64,000 nt of DNA, taken from Rhodocyclaceae bacterium (GTDB lineage Bacteria > Pseudomonadota > Gammaproteobacteria > Burkholderiales > Rhodocyclaceae). The first letter of the stretch is position 1, and each line of letters opens with the position of its first letter. The stretch lies in assembly GCA_035565355.1 (NCBI GenBank), contig DATMSM010000044.1, positions 7,373 through 71,372 of the forward strand, given 5' to 3'. The notes under the pieces are model-generated. The model made no database searches. It saw only the letters and a program-made list of their open reading frames with translations, and had not been told where the DNA came from. The translations under genes were made by a program, and so were the position numbers. This document shows, one piece after another, positions 9,290 to 27,115 of the stretch.

Positions 9290-10250
9290 CGGATAGTCCG
9301 GCCATTGTCCGGATGGCGTCATCCAGCGTATAGGAAAGAGTTAATTCCAGCTCGGCACGGGCTTTCGCAATTGAGGGCACATACCGATTGCGAAAGCTCT
9401 GCGCGGCAGGGTCAGGCGTTGCGGCAATCCGAACATCTTTTCCCGGAGCGACCAAATCGCGGACGAGATATGCGAGTTCTCGGATAGAAATGGCAGCGTC
9501 AGACCCAACGTTGTATGCCTGGCCCGCCCGTCCCCTGGACAGCAAAGCGTACAACCAATGAGCGAGGTCTCTTTGATCCATATATGAACGTATGGGCATG
9601 CCATCCCCATTGACAAGAATCTCTGGCGCCCCCAAGGCATCACGGACGAAATTCCCAATAGCAAAATGCACATCTTGAGGAAGGTCAGGCCCTGCAAAAG
9701 CAAAGCAACGCGCAATGACCGGCTCTAAATCGTGCTGGCTCTGGTAGAGCGCGCATAGGTGCTCTGCGCAACGTTTGGCGACGCTGTAAGCATGCTGGGC
9801 ATCAAGTGGATCCGGCATGCCGTTGTAGCTTTCGGGAATCTGCTCCATTTCCGGCGGCTGTGGGCCATACGCCCCCCCGGAACTCGTAAGGAGGAAGCGT
9901 CGGATACCACGAGACACGGCGTAGTCCAGCATATGGCGCGTGCCGTCCGCAATCTGCGTATAACGCTGCAATGACGTCAGGTTCGGCCCTAGCGTGGAAT
10001 CGGTAGCAGCGTGCAGAAGATGGGTGTAGCCGCTATCGCGGGGCAGCGTTTGCGGATCAAGAATGTCCCCCCGGTGGAAGCGCAGCCATGCATGCCCGGC
10101 GAACTCGGGGTGGCGCTCCAGAAAGACTTGCGGGGAGCGACTCAGCACCGTGACCGAGGGCGTCGCCATTCCGTGCTCGGCCAGCCCGCACCAGTGGCGT
10201 AACAAGGCCTTGCCGAAAAACCCCGTCCCTCCCGTCAATAGCAGCTTCAT
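9276..10250 (-). CDS. NAD-dependent epimerase/dehydratase-family SDR (candidate sugar ketoreductase/epimerase)
   Basis: MKLLLTGGTGFFGKALL Rossmann motif at the N-terminus and the YSVAKRCAE catalytic YxxxK. Start taken at 10250. Confidence 0.85.
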   Translation of the reverse strand: MKLLLTGGTGFFGKALLRHWCGLAEHGMATPSVTVLSRSPQVFLERHPEFAGHAWLRFHRGDILDPQTLPRDSGYTHLLHAATDSTLGPNLTSLQRYTQIADGTRHMLDYAVSRGIRRFLLTSSGGAYGPQPPEMEQIPESYNGMPDPLDAQHAYSVAKRCAEHLCALYQSQHDLEPVIARCFAFAGPDLPQDVHFAIGNFVRDALGAPEILVNGDGMPIRSYMDQRDLAHWLYALLSRGRAGQAYNVGSDAAISIRELAYLVRDLVAPGKDVRIAATPDPAAQSFRNRYVPSIAKARAELELTLSYTLDDAIRTMAGLSDAAR

Positions 10251-10275
10251 AGTCAGTGACGTCTCCGCGCTCATG

Positions 10276-13223: not shown

Positions 13224-14333
13224 TCAAAGTCCACGATTCAAAATAAGGCTCTTCAAAGCCACGTTTTCGCTGTACGGACCATCGATGTGATTGATCGTCA
13301 AACGCTCATCCGCCTTGATCGGCGCCTGCAGCTTTTCGCCGTTCATCACTTCCCGGCATGAGAGTTGCCCCTTATGCAGAGGCACCGCAAGGTAGAAGTC
13401 CTTCTCAAAATCATCCTTGTTGAAGACGTAGCCGACATCAAGGTCGCGACGCGCATACGCACCACGAACCAACGCGTCCAGATACTCCGTCTCCTTGCGC
13501 GTGATAACGCGCCGGCTATCGCTCACACCGCCGCACATTTCCTTGGCCTTATGAAAAGCCTTGAACCAGACGTCGCATTGTTCGGGAAGCGAACAATAAG
13601 AAGAAACCGCAACCCCTTCGTAGTTGATGTCGATATGACGCTCCCAGGTCCGTGCTCCCTTACCGTAGGAGATCAGCATGGAAGAGTGCCAATCGTGGTA
13701 TTCGTGAGTGGAAAGGCCGATTACATGATTCGGATAGCGCTTGCGCAGATAGTCGACCTGATCAAGACAGAGCTCGGAGTCCTCGCTGGGATAGAGGGAG
13801 ACGCAATGATTGATGGCCAGCGGAATATCCCGCTTCTCGAAAAAACGGACCATGTCGTCGAGATCCTTTTCCGAAGCGCCGCCTGTGGAAACAATCGTCG
13901 GCCGGCGAGTAGAGGCAATCTTTTCGATCAGCATCCAGTCATTCATGTCCGAACTCGCGATCTTGATGATCGGCATGTCGAACTCCACGCACAGGTCGAC
14001 AGAAGCCTCGTCAAACGGCGTAGACATGGGAATGCATCCGACATTCCTGACCTCTTCCACCATACGAAAAAACTCAGCCTTGGAAAGCTTAGTGTCTTCC
14101 GTTTTCTTTATATACCGCAGCTCGGTATTGCCCTTGAACTCAGGATGGACAAACTCGTCCACATCGCGGAACTGTAGCTTTATCGCGGCCTTCACATTGT
14201 TGTAGCGGACAATGGCACCATGGTCGCGAACAATCTTCAAGCCCCGTTCCAGCTTGCCCCAATGGTTATTGGCCAACTCAAGCACGAAAAGATTCTCGAA
14301 CAAATCTTTATCACGTTGACTGGTGGTGCGCAT
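13224..14333 (-). CDS. N-acetylneuraminate synthase (NeuB/SpsE) family protein with a C-terminal SAF-like domain
   Basis: The ELANNHWG motif corresponds to the NeuB (I/A)ExxxNHxG motif, followed by IKIASSDMND. Size 369 aa. No neuA or neuC partner is in the window. Confidence 0.65.
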   Translation of the reverse strand: MRTTSQRDKDLFENLFVLELANNHWGKLERGLKIVRDHGAIVRYNNVKAAIKLQFRDVDEFVHPEFKGNTELRYIKKTEDTKLSKAEFFRMVEEVRNVGCIPMSTPFDEASVDLCVEFDMPIIKIASSDMNDWMLIEKIASTRRPTIVSTGGASEKDLDDMVRFFEKRDIPLAINHCVSLYPSEDSELCLDQVDYLRKRYPNHVIGLSTHEYHDWHSSMLISYGKGARTWERHIDINYEGVAVSSYCSLPEQCDVWFKAFHKAKEMCGGVSDSRRVITRKETEYLDALVRGAYARRDLDVGYVFNKDDFEKDFYLAVPLHKGQLSCREVMNGEKLQAPIKADERLTINHIDGPYSENVALKSLILNRGL

Positions 14334-14467
14334 CCTTCCTCCAAGTATCTATTTAGTAGAAGCAACGCCAGAATCAGCTGGGGCTGGCGTTCGAAATTTA
14401 TCTGAATCAACAACGATGCGGCATCGATCCAGCCGGGTAGTCCAACCATGATCGATCTCGCACTTCG

Positions 14468-15808
14468 CTAGAAGCCCACCCCGAAGAAGGACTCCAGTTT
14501 TTCAACGGTAAAATCAAGCATTTCCCGGCTCAGTCCGGGAAAAACACCCAACCAGAAAGTCCGATTCATCACGACATCCGTATTGGTCAAGGTACCGCTC
14601 ACCCTGAAGTTCCTACCCATCATGTAAGGCTGTCTTGTCAAATTCCCCGCGAACAATAGACGAGTGCCTATCTTGTTCTGCTCAAGGAAATTGATGAGAT
14701 CGACACGATCAACACCAGCACCCTCCTTTAGCACCAACGGAAACCCGAACCAGGACGGCTCTGAGTTCGGCGTTGCCTCGGGCAGATGCAGGAATTCGGC
14801 ACAGCTTTGCAGGCGCTCCTTGAGATAGGCAAAATTGGCGCGGCGCTGAGCAATGAAATCCTTCACACGATCCATCTGCGCCAAAGCACATGCCGCCTGC
14901 ATGTCCGAGATCTTCAGGTTGTAGCCCAGATGACTATAGGTGTACTTGTGGTCATAGCCCTCAGGCAGATCCCCCAACTTCCAGCAAAACCGCTTGTTGC
15001 AAGTGTTGTCCTTGCCCGGCTGACAGTAGCAATCCCTTCCCCAGTCGCGGAAAGACTCGGCAATTGTCTTAAGTTCCGCGTTATTGGTGAATACCGCGCC
15101 ACCTTCACCCATGGTGATGTGGTGCGCAGGGTAAAAACTCAAGGTTGCAATATCACCGAACGTGCCGACCAATTCTCCGCCATAGGTCGCCCCAAGCGCA
15201 TCACAACAATCCTCGACCAACCACAGATTGTGCTTTTTGCACAACGCAGTAACCACGTCCAGGTTGAAGGGATTCCCCAGACTATGCGCCAGCATGATGG
15301 CTTTGGTCTTGGGCGAAATAGCCGCTTCGATCTTGCTGGCATCGATATTGTGAGTCGCCAAGTCAACGTCGACAAACACAGGCACTGCGCCGAATTGCAG
15401 AATGGGATTCACGGTCGTCGGGAAGCCCGCCGCGACGCCAATAACTTCGTCGCCGGGTTTGATGGCGCGCTCACCCAGCTTGGGGCTCGTCAAGGTGCTG
15501 AAGGCAACAAGATTTGCCGAAGAGCCGGAGTTGACCGTTATCACATACTTCACGCCCAGGAACTGCGCGAGACGTTCCTCAAACATCGCGTTAAAGCGCC
15601 CGGTCGTCAGCCAGCCATCCAATGATGCCTCGACCATGAGCTGTAGCTCTTTGGCGCCGATCACCTTGCCCGATACCGGTATCGGTGTTTGCCCAGGAGC
15701 AAAGGGCTTTGGCGCATAAGCGATATCAGCATATTGTTGAACCAGATCGGCGATCTGGACACGCAACTTTTCGAGTTGCGCTTGAGAAGAAACGTTGGCG
15801 CTCGTCAT
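14468..15808 (-). CDS. rfbH: CDP-6-deoxy-4-keto-hexose 3-dehydrase (E1, RfbH/DdhC type)
   Basis: DegT-fold protein in which the PLP lysine position reads [14 protein letters not shown] (His instead of Lys). A C-X57-C-X1-C-X7-C spacing (DCC...[13 protein letters not shown]) was counted in the translation. Start taken at MTSANV (15808). Confidence 0.88.
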
Positions 15809-16875
15809 AGGGACTCGGTGTATTGGGAAACTTGTTCCAGGCACAGCGCACGCATATCGTGGCCCTGCAGCCATGCACGATGCCACTCAGCAACGCGTGT
15901 CAGGGCGGTTTCCAGATTCCAGCGCGGCGACCACTGCAATCGCTGACGCGCCTTGGAAATATCCAGCTTTAAGAAGCCCGCTTCATGCGGATGCTCTCCA
16001 TTTTGCGGTATCCAAGTGGCGTTATTGCCCCACGCCGTGCACAAGCGCTCGACGATCCACTGCACCGACTGGGCGTCCTCGTCACGCGGGCCGAAATTCC
16101 AGCTCTCGGCAAAAGCCTGGCCTTGTTCATGCAGACGCTCGGCCAGTACGAGATAGCCGGAAAGTGGCTCCAACACATGCTGCCATGGGCGAACCGCATG
16201 CGGATTCCTGAGCTGCACAGACTCTTGGCGCTCCAAGGCGCACAGAATATCCGGCACCAGCCGGTCTGCCGCCCAGTCGCCGCCGCCGATGACATTGCCA
16301 GCACGCGCGGTTGCCATCGCAATCCCCGCCTCTTTCAGGAAGGAGTTGCGATAAGCGCTGCTGACCAGTTCCGCACACCCCTTGCTGCTCGAGTAGGGAT
16401 CATAGCCACCGATGGGCTCGTTTTCTCGATAGCCCCAGACCCATTCACGGTTTTCGTAGCACTTGTCGGTCGTGATATTGACGATGGCCCGCACGGAAGC
16501 GGTATGGCGCGCGGACTCCAACACATGCGCTGTTCCCATCACGTTGGTGGCATACGTTTCAAGTGGCTGCTGATATGACTGTCGGACTAAAGGCTGCGCC
16601 GCCATGTGAATCACGATTTCTGGCTGGAACTCACGGACCAAGGACTGCAGCAAAGAAAAATCGCGGATGTCTGCAATGCAGTGATCCATCCCTTCCGCCA
16701 CGTTCGCTACCCGGAACAATGCAGGCTCGGTAGGCGGCGCCAAAGCGACACCGCGTACGATAGCCCCCATGCTCTGCAACCACAGGCTAAGCCAGCTTCC
16801 CTTGAAGCCGGTGTGCCCCGTTAAAAGAACCCGCCTGCCCCGCCAGAATTGCGGACGAACTTGAGCGGAGCTCAT
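15805..16875 (-). CDS. rfbG: CDP-glucose 4,6-dehydratase
   Basis: [18 protein letters not shown] and YSSSKGCAE motifs. ATGA-type overlaps with both rfbF and rfbH. Confidence 0.9.
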
Positions 16876-17642
16876 TCCCAGACTTTCCAGGGCGCCTTGC
16901 CCGACGCCCATAGCTCTTCCAGATGACTCTTGTCGCGCAGCGTATCCATGGGCTGCCAGAAGCCATGATGCAGGTAGGCGCTCAACTGCCCCTCCCTTGC
17001 GAGCCTATCCATCGGCTCCTTCTCCCATGCCGTGTCATCGCCATCAATGTAGTCCAGCACCTTGGGCGACAGAGCGAAGAAGCCCCCATTGATCCACGCT
17101 CCATCTCCCTGAGGCTTTTCCTGAAAGCGGCTTACCTTGCCTTCGCTCAGGACTAGAGCGCCGAAGCGACCAGGGGGCTGAGTTGCCGTCAATGTCGCCA
17201 GACAACCTTTTTCCTTGTGAAAAGCCAACAGTTTGGAAATATCGACATCTCCGACTCCATCACCGTAGGTACAGCAAAAATCCTCCTCCCCGAGGTAGGG
17301 GCGCAGCCTTTTGATCCGTCCCCCTGTCATCGTGTCATCCCCGGTATCGACCAGCGTCACCCTCCAGGGCTCCGCGTTGTTGTGATGCACTTCCATCTTG
17401 TTCTTCGCCATATCGAAGGTCACGTTCGACATGTGCAGAAAATAGTTCGCGAAGTACTCCTTGATTACATAGCTCTTGTAACCCAGGCAAATAATGAACT
17501 CATTGACTCCGTGGGCGGAATAGATCTTCATGATGTGCCACAGAATGGGTTTCCCACCCACCTCCACCATGGGTTTAGGCTTCACCGAAGTTTCCTCGCT
17601 AATACGAGTCCCCAAGCCTCCCGCTAAGATCACTGCCTTCAA
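16872..17642 (-). CDS. rfbF: Glucose-1-phosphate cytidylyltransferase
   Basis: [18 protein letters not shown]...[20 protein letters not shown] is very characteristic of RfbF/DdhA. 256 aa. Confidence 0.92.
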
Positions 17643-17757: not shown

Positions 17758-19596
17758 ATGACCAAATATCCAACAAGCCAGCACTTGATGCCATGGGCAG
17801 GGTATCTGTGTGCACTCGCCGTTCTGGAAATCACGTTCGGCAGATTTTTTTCTCCGGCACACACGGTGGGCCACGACTACGCAACTGCCATGCCAGGGCT
17901 ACTGGATGGCTACTACTGGTTCCTGAATAACGGCATCAGCACCCCACCTTGGTTCACCCCCGCCTTCTGCGCTGGTGTCCCACTTTTTTCCGATCCGCAA
18001 TCACTCTTCTACTCCCCCATACAATTCTTCGCCTTCTTCGCGGATCCGCTGAGGGCCTCCCACCTGGCCTTGCTCGCCTATTCGAGCCTAGGCTATCTGG
18101 GCATGTACCTGCTATGTCGGCAACGACTCGGGCTGTCGACCGCAGCCTCGATCTTTGCCGCCTTGCTGTGGATGCTAAACGGTTTTGTTACGCATCGCAT
18201 GATCATCGGCCATATTGGATTTCTCGGCATCAGCCTGATCCCTCTGCTCACCTACCTTCTCCTCTCGACTTCCACCTCCAAGCCAACCAAAGCCCTATGC
18301 ATAACAGGCGCCGGCATTCTCCTGGCCAGTTGGGTGCATTCCGGACTTGGTACGCTATTGATCGCCGCAGCGCTCTCCGTCTGGGGGTTAATCTGTATCG
18401 CCGTCATCCGCGGGGCGCCGGCTCGCGCAGCATACTTGAATAGCGTAGCAGCGGCGACTCTTGGACTCGGCCTCTCCGCATCCAAGCTCGCGGCGACCAT
18501 CAGCACCATGAGCAATCTGGAACGAACCATGTATCCCTTGCCCGGCTTTGCTTCTGTCGGCGACCTATTACTGGCCTCGTTCAGCACCATGATGCTGCCC
18601 AGCAGCCTGGCACAGCCTATGGCCTGGCCGCTTGTACACAATGCCAAGATCTACTTGGATATACATGAATGGACGTTAAACATTACGCCCATTCCATTCG
18701 CGCTCATCCTGCTTGCCGTACTGGTATCGCTCATTCGCAAGCAATCGCAGCCACTCGCCCGCCCTGCACCATCGGCGCTGAGCCATACACTGCTTCTACT
18801 ATTGATCCTATTCATTTCGCTGGCGGTGCAGTTTTATTCCCCTGGCTGGAATGCCTTTCTCAAGACCGCGCCTATCCTTAAATCGATTTCGACGCCGACA
18901 CGCTGGATGGTGCTCTGGCTGCCCATCGTCTGCGTAGGCGCTGCCATCTCACTCAATTACCTTTGCGCGCTGACGCGCAGAAAGGCCGCATGGCAAGCCG
19001 GTAGCTCACTGCTACTGTGCGTTGCTGTCAGCCTGCTGGTTTATACAGAACCGCGCCCCTACTACGAAAACCAGGGCTATGATCCGAACCCCGTTATCGG
19101 AGCCTTCGAACAAGCCAGTCGGCCAGGATTCAAGCCACACCTGGATAGGCTGGGGGCCTATATTGATTCAGCGGGCAATGTCATCTCTCCTCTGTACCGC
19201 AACAATCTTTTTATTGAGGGCGTATCCCAAGCCTTCTGTGCGAACCCGATTTTTGGTTATTTCCTTGAAGCCTACGATCCCAAAGACCTGGCGCCCGGCA
19301 GTCTTTTGAAGACACTTCCATCCGGCCATTTAAACGTTAAGAATCCGGCCTGCTATACCTTCCCGACCGAGAATCATTGCCGACCCGGCGACCATTTCCT
19401 GCCTCAGAATATTGAAGCCGCACAACGTTTTACCAACTACCAGCAGTGGGCGTTTGTACGCCCTGTCAAACAGAGCGTGTGTGATGGCCTCACGCTCGCG
19501 AGCGTCATACTCAGCTTGGGGATACTCCTGATTTGCGGCCCCCTTACCGTGCTGAAAAGTGCCCGATTCTGTTGCCCGCCGCAGCCCCCGAAGTGA
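17758..19596 (+). CDS. Large polytopic membrane protein, candidate GT-C-type (YfhO/Gtr-type-specific-like) glycosyltransferase
   Basis: 612 aa with at least 10 hydrophobic segments and a soluble C-terminal part. It diverges from the sugar operon that encodes GtrA and the GtrB-like GT2. The functional assignment rests on context only. Confidence 0.5.
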   Translation: MTKYPTSQHLMPWAGYLCALAVLEITFGRFFSPAHTVGHDYATAMPGLLDGYYWFLNNGISTPPWFTPAFCAGVPLFSDPQSLFYSPIQFFAFFADPLRASHLALLAYSSLGYLGMYLLCRQRLGLSTAASIFAALLWMLNGFVTHRMIIGHIGFLGISLIPLLTYLLLSTSTSKPTKALCITGAGILLASWVHSGLGTLLIAAALSVWGLICIAVIRGAPARAAYLNSVAAATLGLGLSASKLAATISTMSNLERTMYPLPGFASVGDLLLASFSTMMLPSSLAQPMAWPLVHNAKIYLDIHEWTLNITPIPFALILLAVLVSLIRKQSQPLARPAPSALSHTLLLLLILFISLAVQFYSPGWNAFLKTAPILKSISTPTRWMVLWLPIVCVGAAISLNYLCALTRRKAAWQAGSSLLLCVAVSLLVYTEPRPYYENQGYDPNPVIGAFEQASRPGFKPHLDRLGAYIDSAGNVISPLYRNNLFIEGVSQAFCANPIFGYFLEAYDPKDLAPGSLLKTLPSGHLNVKNPACYTFPTENHCRPGDHFLPQNIEAAQRFTNYQQWAFVRPVKQSVCDGLTLASVILSLGILLICGPLTVLKSARFCCPPQPPK

Positions 19597-19712: not shown

Positions 19713-19728
19713 TGGCATGCTCCTTGCT
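19713..19728 (+). promoter_or_regulatory. Sigma-54 (-24/-12) type promoter upstream of the short pilin gene
   Basis: TGGCAT-gctcc-TTGCT matches TGGCAC-N5-TTGCW with correct GG/GC spacing. It lies about 125 nt upstream of the pilin ATG. Confidence 0.55.
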
Positions 19729-19852
19729 GCATGTTGCTATAGCACAACCGCACTCAAGGGCATGGGAAGTCCAACCTGGAGCCAAGCGGTTTGCCGACAA
19801 GCTGGATGCGGATCCGCTTTTCCGACAAAACTCTTACTCTACGGAGACTTTT

Positions 19853-20035
19853 ATGGCCAAAAAAACCCAGCGGGGTTTTACTCTGATTGAGCTGATGATC
19901 GTAGTTGCCATCATCGGCATCCTGGCTGCGATTGCCATCCCGCAATTCAGCGAATACACCAGGAAGGGCGAGAACAAGGCGGCTCAGTCCGACACTCGCA
20001 ACATCCTGACGCAAGCCATCGCCAACAGCCAATAA
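19853..20035 (+). CDS. Truncated type IVa prepilin (PilA-N-like, alpha-1 helix only)
   Basis: MAKKTQRG|[24 protein letters not shown] has the class III signal with Gly-1, Phe+1 and Glu+5. The mature part is only 52 aa. A GGAG Shine-Dalgarno lies 7 nt upstream of the ATG. Confidence 0.85.
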
Positions 20036-20052
20036 TTCCAGGAGACTCCAAT

Positions 20053-20400
20053 ATGAATCCGAATAGCAAAAAAGCGCTGGAAGCCATCCTCGTCGGCGGC
20101 GTACTGGTTGTATCCCTGAACGCGAGCGCTCAAACCGGCGCCTGCACCGGTGGTACCGGCGTGGGGATTCCGAGTGACCCAACCGCCTTCGTGAAGACCT
20201 CCTTCGTGCCGAAGTGCTCGGCCAATGTGAACGCCGTGTATCTGGACTCCGGCGCTGCCTTCAGTGTCGCGGGTTATTCCGCCAAGGGCAACCAAAGCTA
20301 TGGTGGTTCCAGCGAAGGTGGCAGCGTCAGCATGTGCACCACCTTTGGTGTCGGCGCCGCCCCGACCCTGAGCCCCAGCACGACTTCCGGCTGCTCCTGA
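20053..20400 (+). CDS. Secreted Gly/Ser/Thr-rich 4-Cys protein (candidate PilA-C-like pilin partner)
   Basis: AGGAG Shine-Dalgarno. Sec-type signal peptide (ILVGGVLVVSLNASA|QT). Four Cys in the mature part. Starts 17 nt after the pilin stop. Confidence 0.6.
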   Translation: MNPNSKKALEAILVGGVLVVSLNASAQTGACTGGTGVGIPSDPTAFVKTSFVPKCSANVNAVYLDSGAAFSVAGYSAKGNQSYGGSSEGGSVSMCTTFGVGAAPTLSPSTTSGCS

Positions 20401-20412
20401 TCCAGCCTTTGG

Positions 20413-20442
20413 AAAAAGCCGGCTTTGCGCCGGCTTTTTTTT
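20413..20442 (+). terminator. Rho-independent terminator/attenuator after the two pilin-related genes
   Basis: Stem AGCCGGC / GCCGGCT followed by a T8 run. The next ORF starts only 6 nt later. Confidence 0.7.
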
Positions 20443-20447: not shown

Positions 20448-21266
20448 ATGTCTCTGACTCCTTACACTCAACATATTTCCATCGCATGGAAGCTCGGCGT
20501 CCGCAGCCATGCCATACGCGCGCTGGTCGCATTCGGCGTGTTTCTTCTTGGCGCTGCGTTTCTCGCTGGAGCATTCTCTTTGCGCCAGCCGCTTATCGTC
20601 ACCCTGGATGTCGGCATCAGCGGCATTCGCCTACTGACGGTCTTGCTAACCCTGTTCTGGATGCAGGAAGCCTTCGTACACGACATCGAGCGCCGCACCC
20701 TGACCCTGGCCTTCAGTTTGCCGCTTGATCGCATCACCTACGTACTGGGGCGCTTTATCGGCATCATGCTTTTGATTTCGCTTGCCGTCACCACTTGGGG
20801 AGCTGCCCTTGCAATTGCCGACCAGTTTGCCAGTTGGGGCTACCCCGGGTCCTCGCGCCCGGCTTTGGGGTTGCGCTACGTCGCCATGCTAATGGGCATC
20901 ATGCTTGATGCCTGGGTTATCGGCGCATTCGTCCTCGCCGTCGCCAGTGTCGCACAAACGCCGCTATTGCCTTTTCTGACCGGTGCCGCGTTCGCGGTCT
21001 CCGCCCGCAGCATAGGCGCCGTACTCGATTACCTGAGTTATTCATCCTCCGTGGATGCTGCAACGAAGGCCTATTTCCTAAGCCTCATCGACAAGCTACG
21101 CTGGATCCTACCCGACCTCGGACTATTGGACTGGCGCGCCGCCACCCTATATGGTCAAGACTTTCCGTGGCCACAGGCGCAGTCAGGGATGGCAATTGCC
21201 TTCGGCTACCTTATTGTTTTCCTATCCATTGCCGTCTTTGCGTATCGCCGGCGAGAATTTTACTGA
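20448..21266 (+). CDS. Polytopic membrane protein, ABC-2-type permease-like
   Basis: 272 aa with about 6 hydrophobic segments. No clear Shine-Dalgarno. TGATG overlap with the following gene. An ABC ATPase is encoded 4 kb downstream in the same operon. Confidence 0.55.
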   Translation: MSLTPYTQHISIAWKLGVRSHAIRALVAFGVFLLGAAFLAGAFSLRQPLIVTLDVGISGIRLLTVLLTLFWMQEAFVHDIERRTLTLAFSLPLDRITYVLGRFIGIMLLISLAVTTWGAALAIADQFASWGYPGSSRPALGLRYVAMLMGIMLDAWVIGAFVLAVASVAQTPLLPFLTGAAFAVSARSIGAVLDYLSYSSSVDAATKAYFLSLIDKLRWILPDLGLLDWRAATLYGQDFPWPQAQSGMAIAFGYLIVFLSIAVFAYRRREFY

Positions 21267-24200
21267 TGTCCGCTCAAGCGCCAGACTCCATGCTCCCGCT
21301 CCTGCAGGCGATCCAGTCCTGCGTCAATCAGGGACAAGCTGCTGAAGCCATCCGTCTGTGGGAGGAAGCCGGGCGCCCCGAAAACCGGGAAACCCTTTTT
21401 CTTACGGCGATTGCCGTGCAGCAACTGGACGACCTCGCTTTGGCCCGAGCCAAGCTGGAGAAGGCCCTCGCGCTCGACCCGGACTACCCTCCGGCACAAC
21501 TGCGTCTTGCCCAGGTTGCGCTGAGCGCATTGGACTACCCCGCGACCATCGCCTGGGCAGACCGCTACCTGAATTACCGGCCGTACAGCCAGGAGGCCAT
21601 CAGCTGGAAGGTCTTCGCCATGCAGAAAAACGGCCAGGCGGAAGCTGCGGAGCAGGCCCTGATGGAGTACATCAGGGTTTTTCCCTATTCTCTGGCCACA
21701 GCACAATGCAGCATCGTGATCGCCAATGAACGCAAGGCCTATGTCTATGCCCTACTCATGGGAGGACGGTTACCGCTAGAGCACTGGCACAGGAGTTACG
21801 CTGGACAAACGCTGGCGGCTTGTTGCTTCCATCTCTCCCATGCGCCGCTGATGCATGCAGTTGTCGATATTGTTTACGCCGATACGGTAGCGGAAGAGGA
21901 CGCTGAATATGCTGCACTGATCGGTAATCTGGCGACGCTCGGCGACGCCTATGAAGATGCGGTGCAATGGTACACGCGTGCACGCCAACTCGACCCGCAC
22001 GCCGAGACAAGCTGGTTCAACGAGGCCATCAGTCGCTGGGCGACCGGGGACTTTGCCGCAGGAAGCATCGCCTACCGCGAACGCGGCAAGCTGATGAAGC
22101 TCATGCGTCTGGATGGAATACCGGAATGGCGCGGTGAGAATCTGGAAGGCAAGACACTGCTTGTGCATAGCGAACAAGGCAGCGGAGACGTCATCCAGTT
22201 CATCCGCTATATGCCGTATCTGCGCGAAATCGCAGGCACCGTGCTGTTCAATACCTACCCTGACATTCTTGCACTGCTGCGGACAGACGAAAAAAGTACG
22301 GCGGCCCAGGGCCTGAACGAAAGTCTCCTCGACAAAATCGACTATCAGATCTGGATGATGGACGTGCCAGGCTATCTGAGGCCGAACGGCCTTGCCGACT
22401 TCCCGGCGGATACACCCTATCTGTTCCCGCCTCAAGAAAGGGTTGCCTCATGGAAGAATCGCCTGGCCCCCTACCAAGGTCTAAAGGTCGGTCTGGTTTG
22501 GGCCGGCAACCCCGAACACGCAAATGATCCCAATCGCTCAGCCAGCCTAGCCGAATGGTCGGCATTGAGTGAACTGCAAGGCGTACACTGGTTTTCCTTG
22601 CAAAAAGGCCACGGAGAGCCAGAAGCGAGTTACCCACCGCCAGGGCTGACGCTGAACAATCTCAGCCCGGAAATTCGCGACTTTTCCGATACCGCAGCCA
22701 TCCTCGCAAATCTGGACTTGCTGATCAGCGTAGACACATCGGTGGCCCATTTGGCCGGTGCGTGCGGACGTCCTTGCTGGACCTTATTGCCGAAGCAATG
22801 CATCGACTGGCGCTGGGCCAACCAGCCCGAGATTCCGCACTACTATCCCAGCATGCGTCTGATTCGCCGACAAAAGGAGGACATCGGCTGGGATAGCCTG
22901 GTACGGCGCGAGGTCATCCCCAGGCTCATTGAGCTCGGTGCCACCACGCGTCCAACCCCATCGGAAACATCTCTATCGGCTTATGCGCAGACGCTGGCGC
23001 AGGCGCGCACTACGTTGCAGAACGGGAAGCTGAGCGAAGCGTTAACCCTGTCAGTTCAAGGACTCACGGAGTACCCAGGCGACCCTCGCCTGCAGATGGT
23101 TTGCGCCGACGCGCACATTCGCATGGGCAACAAGGTGTCTGCCGGAGAATGCGCTGCCGAAGTGCTACGCATCTTCCCGCGCAGTGTCAACGCGCATCGC
23201 ATCGCTATGCAGTCGGCCAAAAAGGACAACCTCTTGGGAATGAGTACTCATCTCCAGGCGATGTTGCGTATAGAGCCGGACAACCATGCCATCTGGCAAG
23301 ACGCTGCACGCTTCTACATGACCCACCATGCGCCGCTGATCGCCTATCTCGTCATGCGACACCTGGTGTCACTTAACCCCTCGCACTCGCATATCACTAC
23401 GCTGGCCATTTCTCTGTTGCGCTTGGGCAATCGAGATGCAGCGGCCTCCTTACTTGCAGACATCGAACCTGCGTCTGGAGACAGCCTTGAGCTCCTCCAA
23501 GAGCTCTACTACGCCTGCGCAACCCTTAATCAACGGGACAAGGCGGACCTATTGCAGTCCGCCATCACAGCCCGAGGGCCGATAGGCTCGGACCTCGGCC
23601 TGATGATAGGCTCCATGCTTCTGAGGTGGGGAGAGCAAGAGGGCTGGAAGTTCTATAACCTCTGCAATTGGCCCGACCCCGTCGAGACGCCGCTCAACGT
23701 CCCGATCTGGAACGGCGAAGCATTGGATGGCAAGCATCTGTTGATTTATCAGGATCAAGGCTATGGAGACGTCATTCAGTTCTTCCCCCTGATAAACAGA
23801 TTACCGTCGGCAAGAAAAATTACGCTCTCGGTGTTCTCCGAGGTGCGTGATCTGCTGAGCGAACAAAGTCTCCCGCGGGGGCTTGAGATCATTACCCACA
23901 AAAAGCTGTCGGAAGACTCGGCGCACTATGACTACAGAATCGGTTTCATGCATTGGGTTGCAGGCCTTGCGCCGGATTTGACCAGGCTGCCCGCCCCCTA
24001 TCCCTACCTGCGTGTATCGAGCTCTCCTCGCCTGGAGACATGGGAACAAAAGATGATGGTCGATGCTGGCTTTAAAGTCGGTATCGCATGGGCAGGAAAC
24101 CCCGCGCACTTCAACGACTACAACCGTTCCACGCAACTGGGTGATTGGTTGCCGCTCACTCAGATTTCTGGCATCTCACTGTATAACCTGCAGCGCGACC

Positions 24201-24550
24201 ACGCATCAGATCAGGTTTTTGAATATCCGCAGTTCGAATTTCAAAATATCGTGGCGGATTGCAAGACTCTCCGCGACACCGCCGCCGCGATGCGTATGCT
24301 TGATCTAGTTGTCATCGTAGACACTGGACCGGCCCACCTCGCCGCATCGCTCGGTGTCGAAACCTGGATTCTTCTTCCTAACCTCGGCAACGACTTCCGC
24401 TGGATGCAGGAACGCGATGATTGTCCGTGGTACCCGAGCGTTCGGCTGTTCCGACAGGATATCAACGAGCCCTGGTCTTCCGTGCTGCAGCGTGTTGCTA
24501 CGGCACTTCATGAACGGATGGCGCATCCGGCGAACGTGGTCGCATGCTGA
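21266..24550 (+). CDS. Tandem TPR - GT9-like glycosyltransferase (two TPR+GT modules in one 1094-aa protein)
   Basis: Two internally repeated modules, each with a helical TPR-like region. Module 1 has GSGDVIQFIRY...VGLVWAGNPEHANDPNRS...DTSVAHLAGACGRPCWTLLP...YYPSMRLIRRQ. Module 2 has GYGDVIQFFPL...VGIAWAGNPAHFNDYNRS...DTGPAHLAASLGVETWILLP...PWYPSVRLFRQ. Confidence 0.8.
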   Translation: MSAQAPDSMLPLLQAIQSCVNQGQAAEAIRLWEEAGRPENRETLFLTAIAVQQLDDLALARAKLEKALALDPDYPPAQLRLAQVALSALDYPATIAWADRYLNYRPYSQEAISWKVFAMQKNGQAEAAEQALMEYIRVFPYSLATAQCSIVIANERKAYVYALLMGGRLPLEHWHRSYAGQTLAACCFHLSHAPLMHAVVDIVYADTVAEEDAEYAALIGNLATLGDAYEDAVQWYTRARQLDPHAETSWFNEAISRWATGDFAAGSIAYRERGKLMKLMRLDGIPEWRGENLEGKTLLVHSEQGSGDVIQFIRYMPYLREIAGTVLFNTYPDILALLRTDEKSTAAQGLNESLLDKIDYQIWMMDVPGYLRPNGLADFPADTPYLFPPQERVASWKNRLAPYQGLKVGLVWAGNPEHANDPNRSASLAEWSALSELQGVHWFSLQKGHGEPEASYPPPGLTLNNLSPEIRDFSDTAAILANLDLLISVDTSVAHLAGACGRPCWTLLPKQCIDWRWANQPEIPHYYPSMRLIRRQKEDIGWDSLVRREVIPRLIELGATTRPTPSETSLSAYAQTLAQARTTLQNGKLSEALTLSVQGLTEYPGDPRLQMVCADAHIRMGNKVSAGECAAEVLRIFPRSVNAHRIAMQSAKKDNLLGMSTHLQAMLRIEPDNHAIWQDAARFYMTHHAPLIAYLVMRHLVSLNPSHSHITTLAISLLRLGNRDAAASLLADIEPASGDSLELLQELYYACATLNQRDKADLLQSAITARGPIGSDLGLMIGSMLLRWGEQEGWKFYNLCNWPDPVETPLNVPIWNGEALDGKHLLIYQDQGYGDVIQFFPLINRLPSARKITLSVFSEVRDLLSEQSLPRGLEIITHKKLSEDSAHYDYRIGFMHWVAGLAPDLTRLPAPYPYLRVSSSPRLETWEQKMMVDAGFKVGIAWAGNPAHFNDYNRSTQLGDWLPLTQISGISLYNLQRDHASDQVFEYPQFEFQNIVADCKTLRDTAAAMRMLDLVVIVDTGPAHLAASLGVETWILLPNLGNDFRWMQERDDCPWYPSVRLFRQDINEPWSSVLQRVATALHERMAHPANVVAC

Positions 24551-25356
24551 AAATATGGCCCTCTGTCATGCTGGCTGCCGGAATCGGGCTGACGGCACTG
24601 GGAAATCATCTGCGTCCACCACCACGGCCGATGCAGGAAAGCCTCTCGGTCATGATCCCCGTCCCAGTTCAAATTGTGGCGGCATTTGGCGATCGCTATC
24701 TGGCGGCCAACATAGGCACTTGGCGTGCAATCATGGTTGGCACGCATCGGATGTCCAAAGACGAACTGACAGCGCTTTCCCAAGTACAAGACAGTGCATC
24801 TTGGCTCAATCCAGGCCATGAAGACAACTATTACACTGCTGCCGCCATCCTGCCATGGGCTGGCGAACTTGAGGCGACGCAACGTATTCTCAAGCGCGCC
24901 ACCCAAGCGCGCCCCCACGATCTGTACCCTTCGTTTTTTCATGGCTTCAACGCACTCTACTTTCTAGGCGATGGACTCACTGCAAGCCAGTCATTGAGGA
25001 CAGCAGCGGCCCATGCTCAGTCAAACGATGAACGCCAGGCATTGTCCGTATTGGCGGCACGCTGGTCCGAGCGAAACAACGCCCCACAGATTGCCATTGG
25101 TATCGTTTCGCATATGGCAAAGGAAAGCAAAGACCCGGCGCTCAAGGCATATTTGGCACAAAGAGTCGTCAGACTGGAAGGGCTGGTACAGCTACGTGCT
25201 GCGGCAACCCGCTATCAAGAGCGTTATGGCCGCCCACTGGAAAACCTCGAGCAGTTGGTCAGTGCCGGCATACTTGCCGCCGTGCCTGTTGATCCGCTTG
25301 GCGATGGATACGGATTGCAGGACAATCAACCCGTACTGTTGTCACCGAAAAACTGA
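24544..25356 (+). CDS. Hypothetical protein with an N-terminal membrane anchor or signal
   Basis: 270 aa. N-terminal hydrophobic segment VMLAAGIGLTAL followed by a helical repeat-like body. Translationally coupled (ATGCTGA overlap) to the TPR-GT gene. Confidence 0.5.
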   Translation: MLKIWPSVMLAAGIGLTALGNHLRPPPRPMQESLSVMIPVPVQIVAAFGDRYLAANIGTWRAIMVGTHRMSKDELTALSQVQDSASWLNPGHEDNYYTAAAILPWAGELEATQRILKRATQARPHDLYPSFFHGFNALYFLGDGLTASQSLRTAAAHAQSNDERQALSVLAARWSERNNAPQIAIGIVSHMAKESKDPALKAYLAQRVVRLEGLVQLRAAATRYQERYGRPLENLEQLVSAGILAAVPVDPLGDGYGLQDNQPVLLSPKN

Positions 25357-25361
25357 ACTAT

Positions 25362-26288
25362 ATGCCGGATATTATTTCTGCCAGCAACGTCAGCAAACAC
25401 TATCGCAAGGGTTTGCGCCGACACATCTTCAATGCCCTCGAAGATGTGAGCTTTAGCGCTGCCGCCGGCGAGTCAATCGGTTTCATCGGCCACAATGGTG
25501 CGGGCAAGAGCACCATGATCAGGATCATCATGGGCTTGCAGACACCGACGAGCGGTTCTGTGCTGTTGCAGGGCATGGACCCGCGGGTGCCGGAAAGCCG
25601 CCGCGGTGTTGCCTACGTTCCGGAGAACCCGCTGCTCTACGACCACCTCAGCCCCAATGAGCTCATCCGACTGACGACACTCAGCCACGGAATCTCACCG
25701 AATGAGACCGCAGCGCGTACGCGGAAGTGGTTAGAAAGACTCAACCTTGCCGAAGTCGCGGACAAGCGCGTACGGCAATTTTCCAAGGGGATGGTGCAGC
25801 GTACGACACTCGCCATGGCTTTAGCGGTGGAGCCGCGCTTTCTGATTCTCGATGAACCGCTTTCCGGGCTGGACCCGACCGGGCGGCGCGAGGTCGTGGA
25901 GATTCTTTCTGAATACCGAAGAAACGGTGGCGGAATGCTGTTCTCGTCTCACGTGCTGACCGACGTGGAAGTGCTCGCCGATCGTTTCCTCTTTATTCAC
26001 AAAGGTCGCATTCGCGTCACGGGAACCCCGGGCACCCTACTGCAAGGCCACGAAGACAGTTACGAAGTCATCATCGAAGCGACGGACGAACCGCCCCCGG
26101 GATTTTCACAGCTATATGGGCTCCAGTACAAACTGGAGCTCGACGCAAATGCGCTTGAGATGAAGTTGTCGGAATTGAGAAACAAGAACGGAGTGCGCCT
26201 GATCAACATTCGTTCCAGAAATACGCTCGAATCGGCCTATTTCAGATTTGTCGCGGAAGCCGAACGATCCGACGCCCGACCATCGTAA
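25362..26288 (+). CDS. ABC transporter ATP-binding protein (ABC-2 exporter type)
   Basis: Walker A GHNGAGKST, signature FSKGMVQR, Walker B LILDEPLSGLD. Confidence 0.9.
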   Translation: MPDIISASNVSKHYRKGLRRHIFNALEDVSFSAAAGESIGFIGHNGAGKSTMIRIIMGLQTPTSGSVLLQGMDPRVPESRRGVAYVPENPLLYDHLSPNELIRLTTLSHGISPNETAARTRKWLERLNLAEVADKRVRQFSKGMVQRTTLAMALAVEPRFLILDEPLSGLDPTGRREVVEILSEYRRNGGGMLFSSHVLTDVEVLADRFLFIHKGRIRVTGTPGTLLQGHEDSYEVIIEATDEPPPGFSQLYGLQYKLELDANALEMKLSELRNKNGVRLINIRSRNTLESAYFRFVAEAERSDARPS

Positions 26289-26305: not shown

Positions 26306-27115
26306 ATGGATGGCTACAATGCTCGCCTGGAAGTCGATATTCCCTATTTACAGCCGCATAGCGCATGCAAGGTCTGTGGAGAACAAGCCAGCCTGTATGG
26401 CGTAGTCGACTTTACTAAGACCTGCGCGCAAGAACTCAAACTAGCGCCAGTCGGCGTCCCGGTCTACTACTATCAATGCAGCCACTGCCAGTTTTTATTT
26501 ACGCGGGCATTCGACAAGTGGACGGTCGGCGACTTCAATCGCCACATCTATAACAAAAACTACCAGGTATTCGACCCTGATTCCCTGGAAATACGTCCGA
26601 GCAGTTTCTACGTTTTTTTTCAAGAAGTCCTAAGCAAACACCGGGGCCGCATTCGCGGATTGGACTATGGGGGGGGCAACGGTCTATTGTCGCGTTTAAT
26701 GGTCGATAAGGGCTACGACTTCAGCACTTGGGATCCAATGGAGGCGGAACAGACCATTCCCGAAGGTAAATTCAACCTCATCAGCGCCATTGAAGTAGCT
26801 GAGCACGTTCCCGATCCCCATACGTTCTTTACCGCCATAGACCGTTACTTATCCCAAGATGGGCTCTGCTTTTTCACTACCGCAGTCCAGGATAGCGCCG
26901 ATATCGAAGACCTGATGGCTTGGTGGTACGTAGCTCCCATCAATGGCCATATCAGCTTGTACTCGCATAAAGCCATTGAGCATTTATGTGCCCAATATGG
27001 TCTGCGAGGCCATATCAGTGGCGGTCGACACTTTCTCTACCGAGAGCCTACACCGCTTCTTGATGAGTTTATAAACACCATACTCTCCCATGAGGAGGCA
27101 AGTCACAGCAGCTAA
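26306..27115 (+). CDS. Class I SAM-dependent methyltransferase with an N-terminal CxxC...CxxC zinc ribbon
   Basis: CKVCGEQ...CSHCQ, followed by LDYGGGNG (motif I). Confidence 0.7.
   Translation: MDGYNARLEVDIPYLQPHSACKVCGEQASLYGVVDFTKTCAQELKLAPVGVPVYYYQCSHCQFLFTRAFDKWTVGDFNRHIYNKNYQVFDPDSLEIRPSSFYVFFQEVLSKHRGRIRGLDYGGGNGLLSRLMVDKGYDFSTWDPMEAEQTIPEGKFNLISAIEVAEHVPDPHTFFTAIDRYLSQDGLCFFTTAVQDSADIEDLMAWWYVAPINGHISLYSHKAIEHLCAQYGLRGHISGGRHFLYREPTPLLDEFINTILSHEEASHSS

Follow-up and report, generated by a model that had tools for sequence, protein, structure and literature searches.

Type IV pilins built from two polypeptides have been documented experimentally in Geobacter only (PMC10710030, PMC12954529). 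In the pili of both G. sulfurreducens and G. metallireducens, PilA-N and PilA-C co-assemble, as seen by cryo-EM (PMC10710030, PMC12954529, 10.1101/2025.10.22.684050). PilA-N is a short type IVa prepilin that amounts to the alpha-1 helix alone, and PilA-C is a beta-sheet protein of about 110 aa that is encoded on the same strand, directly 3' of the pilin (GSU1496/GSU1497; PDB 6VK9, 7TGG, 9EGP). GSU1497 has a signal peptide of its own, as described by Shu et al. (PMC5174107). Canonical type IVa pilins, such as PilA of Pseudomonas aeruginosa PAK (1OQW), PilE of Neisseria (2HI2), and PilA4 of Thermus thermophilus (6XXD), are single chains. Tad/Flp (type IVc) pilins are also very short, with a helix-only mature form; they carry the Flp motif, lack F1 and P22, and build helix-only filaments without a second protein (PMC10710030). 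GspG and other pseudopilins of type II secretion systems (T2SS) share the N-terminal methylation motif and the hydrophobic helix. Finally, the e-pilins have been defined by at least 9.8% aromatic residues, gaps of at most 22 residues between them, and aromatics at positions 1, 24, 27, 50/51, and 32/57 (Bray et al., 10.1101/668343).

We analyzed a 64-kb stretch of DNA, here called the window, from a betaproteobacterium of the Rhodocyclaceae (Geobacter belongs to the Desulfuromonadales). The window contains a locus that we consider likely to encode a type IVa pilin split over two polypeptides, as the counterpart in betaproteobacteria of Geobacter PilA-N/PilA-C. As in Geobacter, a short type IVa prepilin gene for the alpha-1 helix alone is followed, directly 3' and on the same strand, by a gene for a beta-sheet protein of similar size with its own signal peptide; we refer to the latter as the companion. 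The features of the locus are as follows.

19713..19728, + strand: candidate sigma-54 (-24/-12) promoter, TGGCATGCTCCTTGCT; weak motif evidence, about 125 nt 5' of the pilin start
19853..20035, + strand: PilA-N-like prepilin gene (ORF reading, Pfam, NCBIfam, PDB, relatives)
20036..20052, + strand: intergenic spacer of 17 nt with the companion Shine-Dalgarno AGGAG at 20040-20044 (sequence)
20053..20400, + strand: PilA-C-like companion gene, 115 aa (family profile, hhalign, AF2, Foldseek)
20413..20442, + strand: intrinsic terminator, AAAAA-GCCGGC-TTTGC-GCCGGC-TTTTTTTT (read directly from the sequence)
20448..21266, + strand: ABC-2-like membrane permease, 272 aa, cassette gene 1 (weak Pfam ABC2_membrane_2 and ABC2_membrane_5 matches)
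21266..24550, + strand: TPR protein, 1094 aa, with two GT9 (heptosyltransferase-like) matches (Pfam TPR families; Glyco_transf_9 in two stretches)
24544..25356, + strand: 270-aa protein of no known family, cassette gene 2 (homology to the Geobacter locus)
25362..26288, + strand: ABC transporter ATPase, 308 aa, cassette gene 3 (Pfam ABC_tran, E 3e-31)
26306..27115, + strand: class I SAM methyltransferase of 269 aa, last gene in the row (Pfam Methyltransf_23, E 4e-27)

RESULTS

A helix-only pilin of the type IVa class

The prepilin ORF runs from an ATG at 19853 to a stop codon at 20033-20035, behind a GGAG ribosome-binding motif (19843-19846), and encodes 60 aa. The leader MAKKTQRG (8 aa, 19853-19876) is followed by the cleavage point and by FTLIELM...IP22Q, so that the mature pilin has 52 residues (19877-20032) and is helix-only, without a globular domain. 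Its short basic leader ending in Gly, F1, E5, and P22 are the type IVa hallmarks found also in the canonical pilins named above, and F24 and Y27 are present as well. Pfam N_methyl matches the product with an E value of 1.2e-11 and 44 bits (cut-off, 21), and TIGR02532 of NCBIfam matches it above its own cut-off; all full-length pilin and pseudopilin models of NCBIfam stay under theirs. The best PDB matches are the Geobacter PilA-N chains, named "Geopilin domain 1" (7tgg, 9egp, and 2m7g/6vk9; E 1e-16 to 9e-15), and identity to G. metallireducens PilA-N is 66%. A search of all six reading frames returned this pilin as the only prepilin motif in the 64-kb window.

The pilin differs from Geobacter PilA-N in length and in aromatic content. 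The mature form has 52 to 53 residues here and in relatives versus 59 to 61 in Geobacter, and the aromatic C-terminal tail of Geobacter PilA-N (LESYYSEHQFYPN) is absent. Aromatics make up 3 of the 52 mature residues (5.8%), namely, F1, F24, and Y27, with none past position 27. The protein thus falls outside the e-pilin definition, and a "conductive" pilin is unlikely given this content. Two other identities were considered and rejected. A Tad/Flp (type IVc) pilin is ruled out by the presence of F1 and P22, and the window has no tad genes. A T2SS pseudopilin does not fit either: the GspG model gives 39.6 bits (cut-off, 88.85) and the GspH model 39.8 (cut-off, 80), with only the N-terminal 45 to 50 residues matching, and no T2SS genes were found near the pilin.

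A companion with a Sec-type signal peptide in the same transcription unit

Seventeen nucleotides after the pilin, the second ORF begins with its own Shine-Dalgarno and start codon. Read by eye, its first codons (20053-20130) specify a Sec-type signal peptide with predicted cleavage after NASA: the N terminus, MNPNSKKALEAILVGGVLVVSLNASA followed by QTG, combines a basic n-region with a hydrophobic core and has A-S-A as its cleavage motif. Helix and head would therefore leave the cytoplasm as separate products, one with a class III signal and the other through Sec, unlike the single chain of canonical type IVa pilins. The mature companion is a beta-rich domain of 89 residues (20131-20397).

Four cysteines (C31, C55, C95, and C114) probably form two disulfides, C31-C55 and C95-C114. 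In the companion-family alignment (144 sequences), the first two cysteines covary: 137 members have both, 7 have neither, and none has just one; the number of tail cysteines is always even, with cysteines gained or lost pairwise. The C-terminal disulfide would close an 18-residue, D-region-like loop. The first-pass annotation had read the four cysteines as two disulfides "as in a pilin D-region." The pairing holds up well in the family, but the likeness is partial, since the head of classical type IVa pilins, which also has cysteines, forms one disulfide in its D-region, and Geobacter PilA-C lacks these four cysteines altogether. The rest of that annotation's description of the pair agrees with our reading of the ORFs and residue counts: a prepilin of 52 mature residues that is an alpha-1 helix without a head, keeping F1, F24, and Y27 and missing the C-terminal aromatics, and, after a 17-nt gap, a 115-aa protein with four Cys and its own Shine-Dalgarno and Sec signal.

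Read from the sequence, the pilin and companion genes make up one short transcription unit ended by a terminator, which closes it 5 nt ahead of the next start codon. This terminator was read directly and was not reported by a consensus terminator scan; an equivalent GC-rich hairpin with a T-run lies 3' of the companion in nearly all related loci and in L005, the spacer between pilin and companion in related loci being 10 to 42 nt. Upstream, the sigma-54 site can be named only as a candidate promoter: the motif TGGCAY-N5-TTGCW has one match in the 64-kb window, with a chance expectation of 0.24 and at least one match in 22 of 100 shuffles, and the strict motif stands 5' of the pilin in just 2 of 32 related loci. 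A promoter scan found no sigma-70-like site. An Rfam scan returned just two tRNAs, both away from the pilin, and neither a riboswitch nor any other RNA element in its vicinity.

The companion resembles PilA-C in profile and fold

The companion has no family in Pfam or NCBIfam, and a PDB search with the single sequence gave nothing meaningful. A word-indexed protein search found just 4 relatives; an exhaustive profile search was needed to gather the family, which comprises 304 representative clusters. Against the PDB, the best match of the family profile is G. metallireducens PilA-C (9egp_B, "Geopilin domain 2"), aligned end to end with an E value of 0.0047. When the family was compared by hhalign with a PilA-C alignment that included signal peptides, the probability was 95.6% and the E value 1e-8, values partly inflated because the signal peptides were aligned to each other; another PilA-C alignment gave 2e-5. 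With the mature domains alone, the probability fell to 43% (E 2.5e-4), the aligned region being the conserved core (FtPKCSANV...KGK..FGGS versus QTSNQVTLEYD...KGTRKYASSS). At the sequence level, the similarity of the mature companion to PilA-C is thus weak, and a large-database search with the companion family would not find Geobacter PilA-C. The two are linked solely by profile, fold, and synteny comparisons.

The structural models point to PilA-C as well. In its AF2 model (pLDDT 84), the companion has five beta strands, with residues 5-16 as a separate low-confidence helix, and its predicted fold is of the PilA-C or pilin-head beta-sheet kind. Among 350,542 PDB chains, its top three Foldseek matches are 6vk9, 9egp_B, and 7tgg, which are all three solved PilA-C chains; 9egp_B matches with a probability of 0.96 and a TM-score of 0.54. 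We also modeled an artificial fusion of the two mature proteins of the window, using an unpaired companion alignment, so that the model carries no co-evolution evidence on the interface. In this fused model (pLDDT 85.5), five strands come after a long helix; the pilin part is helical at residues 3-20, 22-27, and 34-51, with low confidence at residues 21-40 (pLDDT 56 to 63). The four best matches comprise the three PilA-C chains and T. thermophilus PilA4, which the model resembles across the full 141 aligned columns; 9egp_B was matched with a TM-score of 0.56 and an rmsd of 2.6 Å over 69 columns. Across the two models, 9egp_B was recovered with probabilities of 0.96 to 0.97, TM-scores of 0.54 to 0.56, and rmsd values of 2.6 to 3.4 Å. 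The Foldseek E values are just 0.1 to 0.9, and it is the rank, probability, and TM-score that persuade.

The pair recurs as two genes in relatives

The pilin-companion pair recurs at 36 genome loci from "Candidatus Accumulibacter," Sulfuritalea, and other Rhodocyclales, in a survey that used a motif-selected sub-alignment and is therefore biased to companions with F[TN]PKCSAN, and on several metagenome contigs; such recurrence is not due to chance. A short pilin is present in 36 of 36 genome loci, at 76 to 87% identity to that of the window in 35 of them and 63% in the remaining one (L034), and a companion detectable by tblastn is present in 34. Divergent two-Cys members of the companion family show the same two-gene arrangement. 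Many relatives differ from Geobacter in having a second short pilin paralogue, so that two short pilin genes accompany one companion.

The two proteins diverge at different rates. Mean pairwise identity is about 88% among the pilins and about 45% among the companions, as would be predicted if the helix is buried and the head exposed. The first-pass annotation had looked to close relatives for an uninterrupted pilin gene that would speak against a split: there is no fused single pilin gene among the 36 genome loci, and among the 150 listed representatives of the 304 companion-family clusters none is fused to a pilin helix.

Gene order around the pair is shared with Geobacter

The pair is followed by three genes with counterparts at the same places in G. 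metallireducens. The permease is 26% identical to the gene directly after pilA-C (E 1e-20) and is found in 35 of 36 loci; the 270-aa accessory protein, which has no match in Pfam, NCBIfam, or the PDB, is 28% identical to the second gene (E 7e-18), also with 35 of 36 loci; and the ATPase is 39% identical to the third (E 1e-59) and occurs in 32 of 36 loci, with no match in the retrieved DNA of the other four. By BLASTP, the order pilin, companion, permease, accessory protein, ATPase is common to the window and G. metallireducens, and TPR and glycosyltransferase genes lie nearby in both. Sequence comparison thus indicates that the pair and the three cassette genes have been conserved across the Rhodocyclaceae, each as a gene of its own, and are syntenic with Geobacter. 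The unit conserved between the two phyla comprises five genes and extends beyond the pilin pair alone.

Other neighbors are less constant. The 1094-aa TPR protein sits inside the cassette and is a component that varies between loci: a 33%-identical counterpart occupies the same position in L045, and Sulfuritalea and Accumulibacter loci have a TPR-GT41 protein after the ATPase instead. TPR-glycosyltransferases were accordingly rejected as part of a conserved cassette core, being homologous neither between loci nor to the Geobacter TPR protein. A tblastn search of related loci did not detect the methyltransferase, whose membership in the system is uncertain. On the 5' side of the pilin, the window has a sugar-nucleotide cluster and a gene for a 612-aa membrane protein. 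In G. metallireducens, pilBTCSR precede pilA-N, a placement that typifies Geobacter but is no strict hallmark of split pilins, whereas the pair described here does not adjoin these genes; none of pilB, pilC, pilD, pilMNOPQ, pilS, and pilR is present in the 64-kb window, and L012 and L015 showed no pil gene within 6 kb of the pair.

Taken against these data, the parallels to Geobacter drawn by the first-pass annotation stand. Its proposal that the arrangement mirrors PilA-N/PilA-C is supported by pilin homology, fold, and synteny. For the pilin, the PDB matches bear out the relationship to PilA-N; for the companion, a PilA-C-like identity is supported by the profile and Foldseek matches, the comparison of mature domains by hhalign being weak. 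Its statement that ABC transporter and polysaccharide genes follow the Geobacter pair was verified in G. metallireducens, where the first three genes are homologous to ours and in the same order.

DISCUSSION

Alternative explanations of the locus

Only 17 nt separate the two neighboring ORFs, which share a strand and whose summed size is about that of a normal type IVa pilin, as it would be if a full-length gene had been broken by a frameshift or nonsense mutation, leaving the second ORF as a C-terminal remnant. We regard such a pseudogene as extremely improbable. The second ORF is equipped with a Shine-Dalgarno and a start codon of its own and with an N-terminal signal peptide, the last of which had already been held against a frameshifted pseudogene in the first-pass annotation; two genes are kept in all 36 genome loci and on metagenome contigs, despite divergence of the companion to 30 to 45% identity; the 150 listed family representatives are all stand-alone proteins of 96 to 159 aa with hydrophobic N termini; and the conserved core and paired cysteines of the companion point to purifying selection. 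If both genes are functional, the 52-residue pilin might still polymerize alone, in a Tad/Flp-like manner, with the companion acting as a periplasmic helper, or as a substrate or partner of the ABC transporter, and not as a filament subunit. A helper role recalls the older "Spc" idea, in which GSU1497 is a pilin chaperone. The weak sequence similarity between mature companion and PilA-C and the Foldseek E values, which are not significant alone, speak for such a filament, as do the two short pilins per companion in many loci, which fit a strict 1:1 subunit less neatly; moreover, helix-only pili exist, for example, the Caulobacter Tad pilus (PMC10710030). However, the pilin has the type IVa hallmarks (short leader, F1, and P22) and not the Flp motif, and the C-terminal half of the mature pilin is not especially polar, the equivalent surface in Geobacter being covered by PilA-C (PMC10710030). 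The top structural matches of the companion are PilA-C chains and a type IV pilin, its fast divergence beside a near-invariant pilin is more in keeping with an exposed structural surface than with a chaperone, and the Geobacter homologue is a filament subunit by cryo-EM (PMC12954529). A filament of helices only, with the companion as a helper, is therefore quite unlikely in our judgment.

The same split structure could also serve another function. In this scenario, the pair would form, in place of a surface pilus, a short periplasmic or endopilus-like filament that aids the export of a polysaccharide or glycoprotein made by the glycosyltransferase and ABC genes nearby. The three cassette genes accompany the pair in Geobacter and, depending on the gene, in 32 to 35 of the 36 loci from Rhodocyclaceae; TPR-glycosyltransferases, albeit of different families, lie in or beside the cassette; and the sugar-nucleotide cluster is 5' in the window. 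Gu et al. in 2021 reportedly proposed a secretory role for Geobacter PilA-N/C pili, which would count in the same direction. Yet in nearly all loci the pilin pair is set apart from the ABC genes by a terminator, T2SS pseudopilin models remain far under their cut-offs (for GspG, less than half the required bits), and the companion has diversified strongly, which suggests that it is exposed to the environment. In addition, extracellular PilA-N/C pili are found in sheared Geobacter preparations (PMC12954529, 10.1101/2025.10.22.684050). A secretion pseudopilus is thus unlikely.

A model for assembly of the split pilin

We favor a type IVa pilin whose helix and head are separate polypeptides. According to this model, the prepilin peptidase would cleave after Gly8 and methylate Phe1, with the helix held meanwhile in the inner membrane, and the companion would be exported through Sec and then oxidized in the periplasm. 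The companion may then dock non-covalently onto the C-terminal half of the helix, recreating the canonical pilin fold, and the heterodimers would be polymerized by type IV pilus machinery whose genes would lie elsewhere in the genome. Conserved helices would form the filament core, and the fast-evolving companion would form its exposed surface. Co-assembly of pilin and companion is what we infer from the comparison with Geobacter. Such a filament would most probably have ordinary pilus roles, for example, adhesion, biofilm or floc formation, or twitching; a pseudopilus-like role in secretion is possible.

A more tentative proposal, and one that we hold to be somewhat doubtful, concerns the five genes together: short pilin, Sec-exported head, ABC-2-like permease, protein of about 280 aa, and ABC ATPase. 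These may constitute a module in which the ABC system, unrecognized so far, is dedicated to the biogenesis or modification of the split pilin. It could deliver or modify the head, or it could export a glycan that the TPR-glycosyltransferases attach to the head. The two-gene pilin would then be old and widespread and not a recent adaptation of Geobacter to electron transfer. If the module is real, the Geobacter phenotypes now assigned to the downstream "xap" polysaccharide genes need a fresh look.

Significance

Because the pair also occurs in Accumulibacter, Sulfuritalea, and their relatives, the split is neither confined to Geobacter nor bound to "nanowire" pilins. The aromatic-poor pilin separates the split architecture from conductivity, and these loci offer natural comparison systems for the e-pili debate. 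They also bear on whether the two genes arose by fission or represent the ancestral state, a question raised in PMC10710030. A family of about 300 clusters with no Pfam or NCBIfam entry is now probably accounted for as pilin head domains. The annotation of pili in these genomes, at present just a 60-aa "pilin" and a "hypothetical protein," would change accordingly. The Rhodocyclaceae include the cultured genus Sulfuritalea and "Ca. Accumulibacter," the key phosphate remover in wastewater plants; for Accumulibacter, the locus points to a major structure on the cell surface that matters for the formation of flocs and granules.

A short prepilin gene and a putatively secreted companion lie in tandem

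The pilin gene and its surroundings occupy the following positions in the window.

7890-17642, minus strand: sugar-nucleotide and glycan gene cluster, upstream of the pilin
17758-19596, plus strand: 612-aa polytopic membrane protein, directly 5' of the pilin
19853-20035, plus strand: prepilin ORF, product MAKKTQRG plus 52 mature residues
ATG at 20053, plus strand: companion ORF, 115 codons
20413-20442: hairpin AAAAAGCCGGC-TTTGC-GCCGGCTTTTTTTT, after the companion gene
20448-26288: cassette of a permease, an accessory protein of ~280 aa and an ABC ATPase (also Geobacter metallireducens locus L007, 10428-12995, and Rhodocyclaceae genome loci L009-L046)
32393-32466 and 40186-40259, both minus strand: two tRNA genes, the sole Rfam matches in the window

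The prepilin leader consists of eight residues, is basic, and ends in Gly; the mature protein has F1, E5, P22, F24, and Y27. It matches the Pfam N_methyl family (the prepilin N-terminal methylation motif) with an E value of 1.2e-11, while every full-length pilin or pseudopilin model stays far below its cut-off because no sequence follows the helix. The gene ends in TAA, and a spacer of exactly 17 nt, which includes AGGAG, leads to the companion gene. The companion begins with MNPNSKKALEAILVGGVLVVSLNASA, continues with QTG after the cleavage site, and carries Cys at positions 31, 55, 95, and 114; judged by eye, its signal region combines a basic n-region with a hydrophobic core and carries an A-S-A cleavage motif. 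The first-pass annotation had described the prepilin, the 17-nt gap, and a companion with its own Shine-Dalgarno sequence, signal peptide, and four Cys, all of which we confirm as written. The next gene starts at 20448, downstream of the hairpin. The window holds no second prepilin motif.

The two-gene arrangement is conserved among relatives

Scanning genomes with the companion motif as seed gave 36 loci, which all come from Candidatus Accumulibacter species, Sulfuritalea, and other Rhodocyclales and betaproteobacterial MAGs. A short pilin is present in every one of them. ORF parsing placed a prepilin of 60 to 61 aa, ending 10 to 42 nt 5' of the companion start, in 32 of the 36; the remaining four, where parsing or a contig edge interfered, were settled by tblastn. 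The layout is unchanged on metagenome contigs whose companions are 39% and 63% identical to ours, and it is retained in two divergent family members that lack the first Cys pair. The survey of relatives foreseen in the first-pass annotation thus found separate genes throughout, with no uninterrupted full-length pilin and no fused pilin-companion gene in genome loci, metagenome contigs, or divergent members. In nearly all loci, the companion gene is followed by a GC-rich hairpin and T-run. Pilin and companion therefore make up a conserved two-gene unit, and a terminator sets the ABC genes apart from it. Across 29 pairs, mean identity is 88% for the pilins (80% when the first 25 residues are left out) and 45% for the companions; a buried helix beside an exposed, diversifying companion surface would be expected to show such a contrast.

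Several loci depart from this layout in detail. A second short pilin paralogue, with 52 to 55 mature residues in 11 parsed cases, lies upstream of the pair or just 3' of the companion in L010, L014-L016, L019, L021, L023, L027, L036, and L042-L046, where the companion gene remains single; the window has one pilin, compared with two in many related loci. In an Accumulibacter propinquus MAG (L016, 5734-5985), the pilin reaches 83 aa, its last ~20 residues being tandemly duplicated (…ARNLLTAAIANSTGIAASKRRRLARNLLTAAISNSTL). On a Ca. Accumulibacter aalborgensis contig (L034), a pilin-like match at ~1537 (minus strand) is on the strand opposite to the companion, and the companion ORF (1646-2014) has an aberrant N-terminus; this could reflect an inversion or an assembly problem.

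The companion belongs to a family of stand-alone proteins

Searched as a single sequence, the companion had no match in Pfam, NCBIfam, or PDB, and a word-indexed search returned four relatives, one of them sourced to a Rhodocyclaceae MAG. Searching 1.84 billion cluster representatives exhaustively with a profile gathered 304 family members at E values up to 1e-3, 102 of them at 1e-10 or better. All of the 150 members listed are 96 to 159 aa long and are matched from near the N-terminus, which makes them stand-alone proteins rather than the C-terminal part of longer pilins. Their alignment runs from the signal peptide through a first Cys, F-(T/N)-P-K-C-S-A-N-V, and S-x-K-G-K-x-x-F-G-G-S-x-x-G-G to a Cys-containing tail. 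Among 144 members, the first two Cys occur together in 137, are jointly missing in 7, and are never split, and the tail has 0, 2, or 4 Cys without exception. Such pairing would be expected from two disulfides, putatively C1-C2 and C3-C4.

In P0004, a 39%-identical companion on metagenome contigs L001 and L004, residues 11 to 14 of the signal region read L-T-A-C, a possible lipobox; therefore, some family members might be lipoproteins rather than soluble periplasmic proteins. On a further metagenome contig (L006, 375-605), the 76-aa called protein P0003 fuses a Polyketide_cyc2-like N-terminal part with the final 37 residues of the window companion, and the DNA that follows is identical to the permease gene of the window; a chimeric metagenome assembly or a rearrangement at this site is the probable cause.

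Both proteins point to the Geobacter split pilin

The best matches of the pilin among all PDB sequences are three Geobacter "Geopilin domain 1" (PilA-N) entries (7tgg, 9egp, and 2m7g/6vk9; E values of 1e-16 to 9e-15), followed by ordinary type IVa pilins at 1e-10 and weaker. Its aromatic content is 3/52 residues (5.8%), with none beyond Y27, so it fails the published "e-pilin" criteria (10.1101/668343). As the first-pass annotation had stated, it lacks the aromatic tail seen in G. metallireducens PilA-N.

Four independent lines bear on whether the companion corresponds to PilA-C: profile against PDB, profile against profile, fold, and fusion fold. The best PDB match of the family profile is 9egp_B, the G. 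metallireducens PilA-C ("Geopilin domain 2"), with an E value of 0.0047 and an end-to-end alignment; lower-ranked matches are antibody noise. Profile-profile comparison gave an E value of 2e-5 against six close PilA-C sequences, and 95.6% probability with an E value of 1e-8 over 94 columns against nine somewhat more diverse ones. Because the 94-column alignment spanned the signal peptides of both sides, we repeated the comparison on mature domains, which yielded 43% probability and an E value of 2.5e-4 over 56 columns spanning the conserved core. Given these values, sequence homology of the mature domain to PilA-C is suggestive, not conclusive.

An AlphaFold2 model of the companion (144-sequence alignment; mean pLDDT, 84) has a sheet of five strands. 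Its top three Foldseek matches among 350,542 PDB chains are all the solved PilA-C chains (6vk9, 9egp_B, and 7tgg), and the next is the Thermus thermophilus pilin PilA4. The match to 9egp_B has a probability of 0.96 and a target-normalized TM-score of 0.54; the Foldseek E values of 0.3 to 0.9 are weak alone. When mature pilin and mature companion were modeled as a fusion (pLDDT, 85.5), a long broken helix led into the same sheet; PilA4 and the three PilA-C chains were the top four matches, with a TM-score of 0.56 and an rmsd of 2.6 Å over 69 columns for 9egp_B.

A five-gene module is shared with Geobacter

In G. metallireducens, pilB-pilT-pilC-pilS-pilR and an IS element precede pilA-N (69 aa) and pilA-C (113 aa), which are followed by a 272-aa protein, a 289-aa protein, and a 296-aa ABC ATPase; beyond these lie TPR, UbiA, and more ABC and glycosyltransferase genes. 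This order confirms the first-pass statement that ABC-transporter and polysaccharide genes follow the Geobacter pair. The three cassette genes of the window are in identical order and are homologous to these three: the 272-aa ABC-2-like permease (26% identity; E value, 1e-20), a 270-aa protein of unknown family (28%; 7e-18), and the 308-aa ABC ATPase (39%; 1e-59). GSU1501 (xapD) is likewise annotated as an ABC transporter ATPase (PMC5585712). The permease and accessory genes lie downstream in 35/36 loci, and the ATPase also within the fetched DNA in 32/36; with the Geobacter order, this makes the conserved unit five genes, not two. In this module the companion occupies the PilA-C slot, and homology is demonstrable for all four remaining genes. 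Because of this position, together with the profile and fold results, we consider the companion the PilA-C counterpart, in line with the first-pass proposal that the pair mirrors PilA-N/PilA-C.

A TPR-containing glycosyltransferase accompanies the cassette, its family varying by locus:

Window 21266-24550; L045 2718-6248: TPR protein with two GT9 matches, 1094-1176 aa
L012 8907-10883 and 3180-5096 (minus strand); L015 9040-10983: TPR-GT41 (O-GlcNAc-transferase-like), Sulfuritalea and Accumulibacter
L007 12982-14697: membrane TPR protein, Geobacter

The TPR proteins of the different loci show no homology to each other; they may point to a putative glycosylation of the Ser/Thr-rich companion. 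In L022, L037, and L041, ~4.5 kb of extra DNA separates the companion and permease genes (about 6200-10800/11000).

Upstream, the glycan cluster has Pfam matches to GT2, NAD-dependent epimerase/dehydratase, and FkbM-type methyltransferase. Its other ORFs were named from translations alone, without family search, and look like a thiamine-diphosphate enzyme, a NeuB-like synthase, a DegT-type aminotransferase, a CDP-glucose 4,6-dehydratase, and a glucose-1-phosphate cytidylyltransferase. For the 612-aa membrane protein, Pfam, NCBIfam, and PDB gave no match, and it was not found in related loci; one guess is a GT-C-type glycosyltransferase or oligosaccharyltransferase. A sigma-54-type motif 5' of the pilin, not conserved in relatives, is a candidate only. 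GC content at ~7 to 27 kb is 0.51 to 0.60, somewhat below the flanks. The Rfam scan found no riboswitch or other RNA family near the pilin locus.

Discussion

Cryo-EM of Geobacter filaments shows a core of PilA-N helices, with PilA-C forming the globular domain on the exterior (PMC10710030, PMC12954529, 10.1101/2025.10.22.684050). By analogy, a PilD-type peptidase would process the prepilin, and the companion would cross the membrane by Sec, be oxidized in the periplasm, and dock onto the C-terminal half of the helix. Pilus machinery encoded elsewhere would polymerize the heterodimers; the window contains no pil assembly or regulatory genes.

That the pair is a broken pseudogene of one full-length pilin is hardly conceivable, since each ORF has independent start signals and the two-gene state is deeply conserved; the first-pass argument from the independent signal peptide therefore holds. 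The pilus could instead be built of helices only, with the companion an unrelated helper protein. The weak homology of the mature companion domain to PilA-C and the two short pilin genes per companion in many relatives speak for this model, which we judge improbable. A pseudopilus with a secretion role tied to the ABC and glycosyltransferase genes would have the same structure and another function; we regard it as unlikely.

Shu et al. reported a truncated pilin in "Ca. Accumulibacter sp. [quoted passage not shown] The literature we searched describes no PilA-N/PilA-C pili outside Geobacter and no split or two-gene pilins elsewhere; an earlier mention may exist. Architecture and linked cassette match those of Geobacter, whereas the Rhodocyclaceae lineage is new, its head-domain family is diverged and unannotated with predicted disulfides, and the window pilin is even shorter and aromatic-poor. 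Overall, a split pilin in Rhodocyclaceae is well supported, extending a known phenomenon rather than revealing a new one. It is likely to surprise specialists who tie pilin truncation to extracellular electron transfer, and the Rhodocyclaceae split pilins offer tractable systems for comparison.
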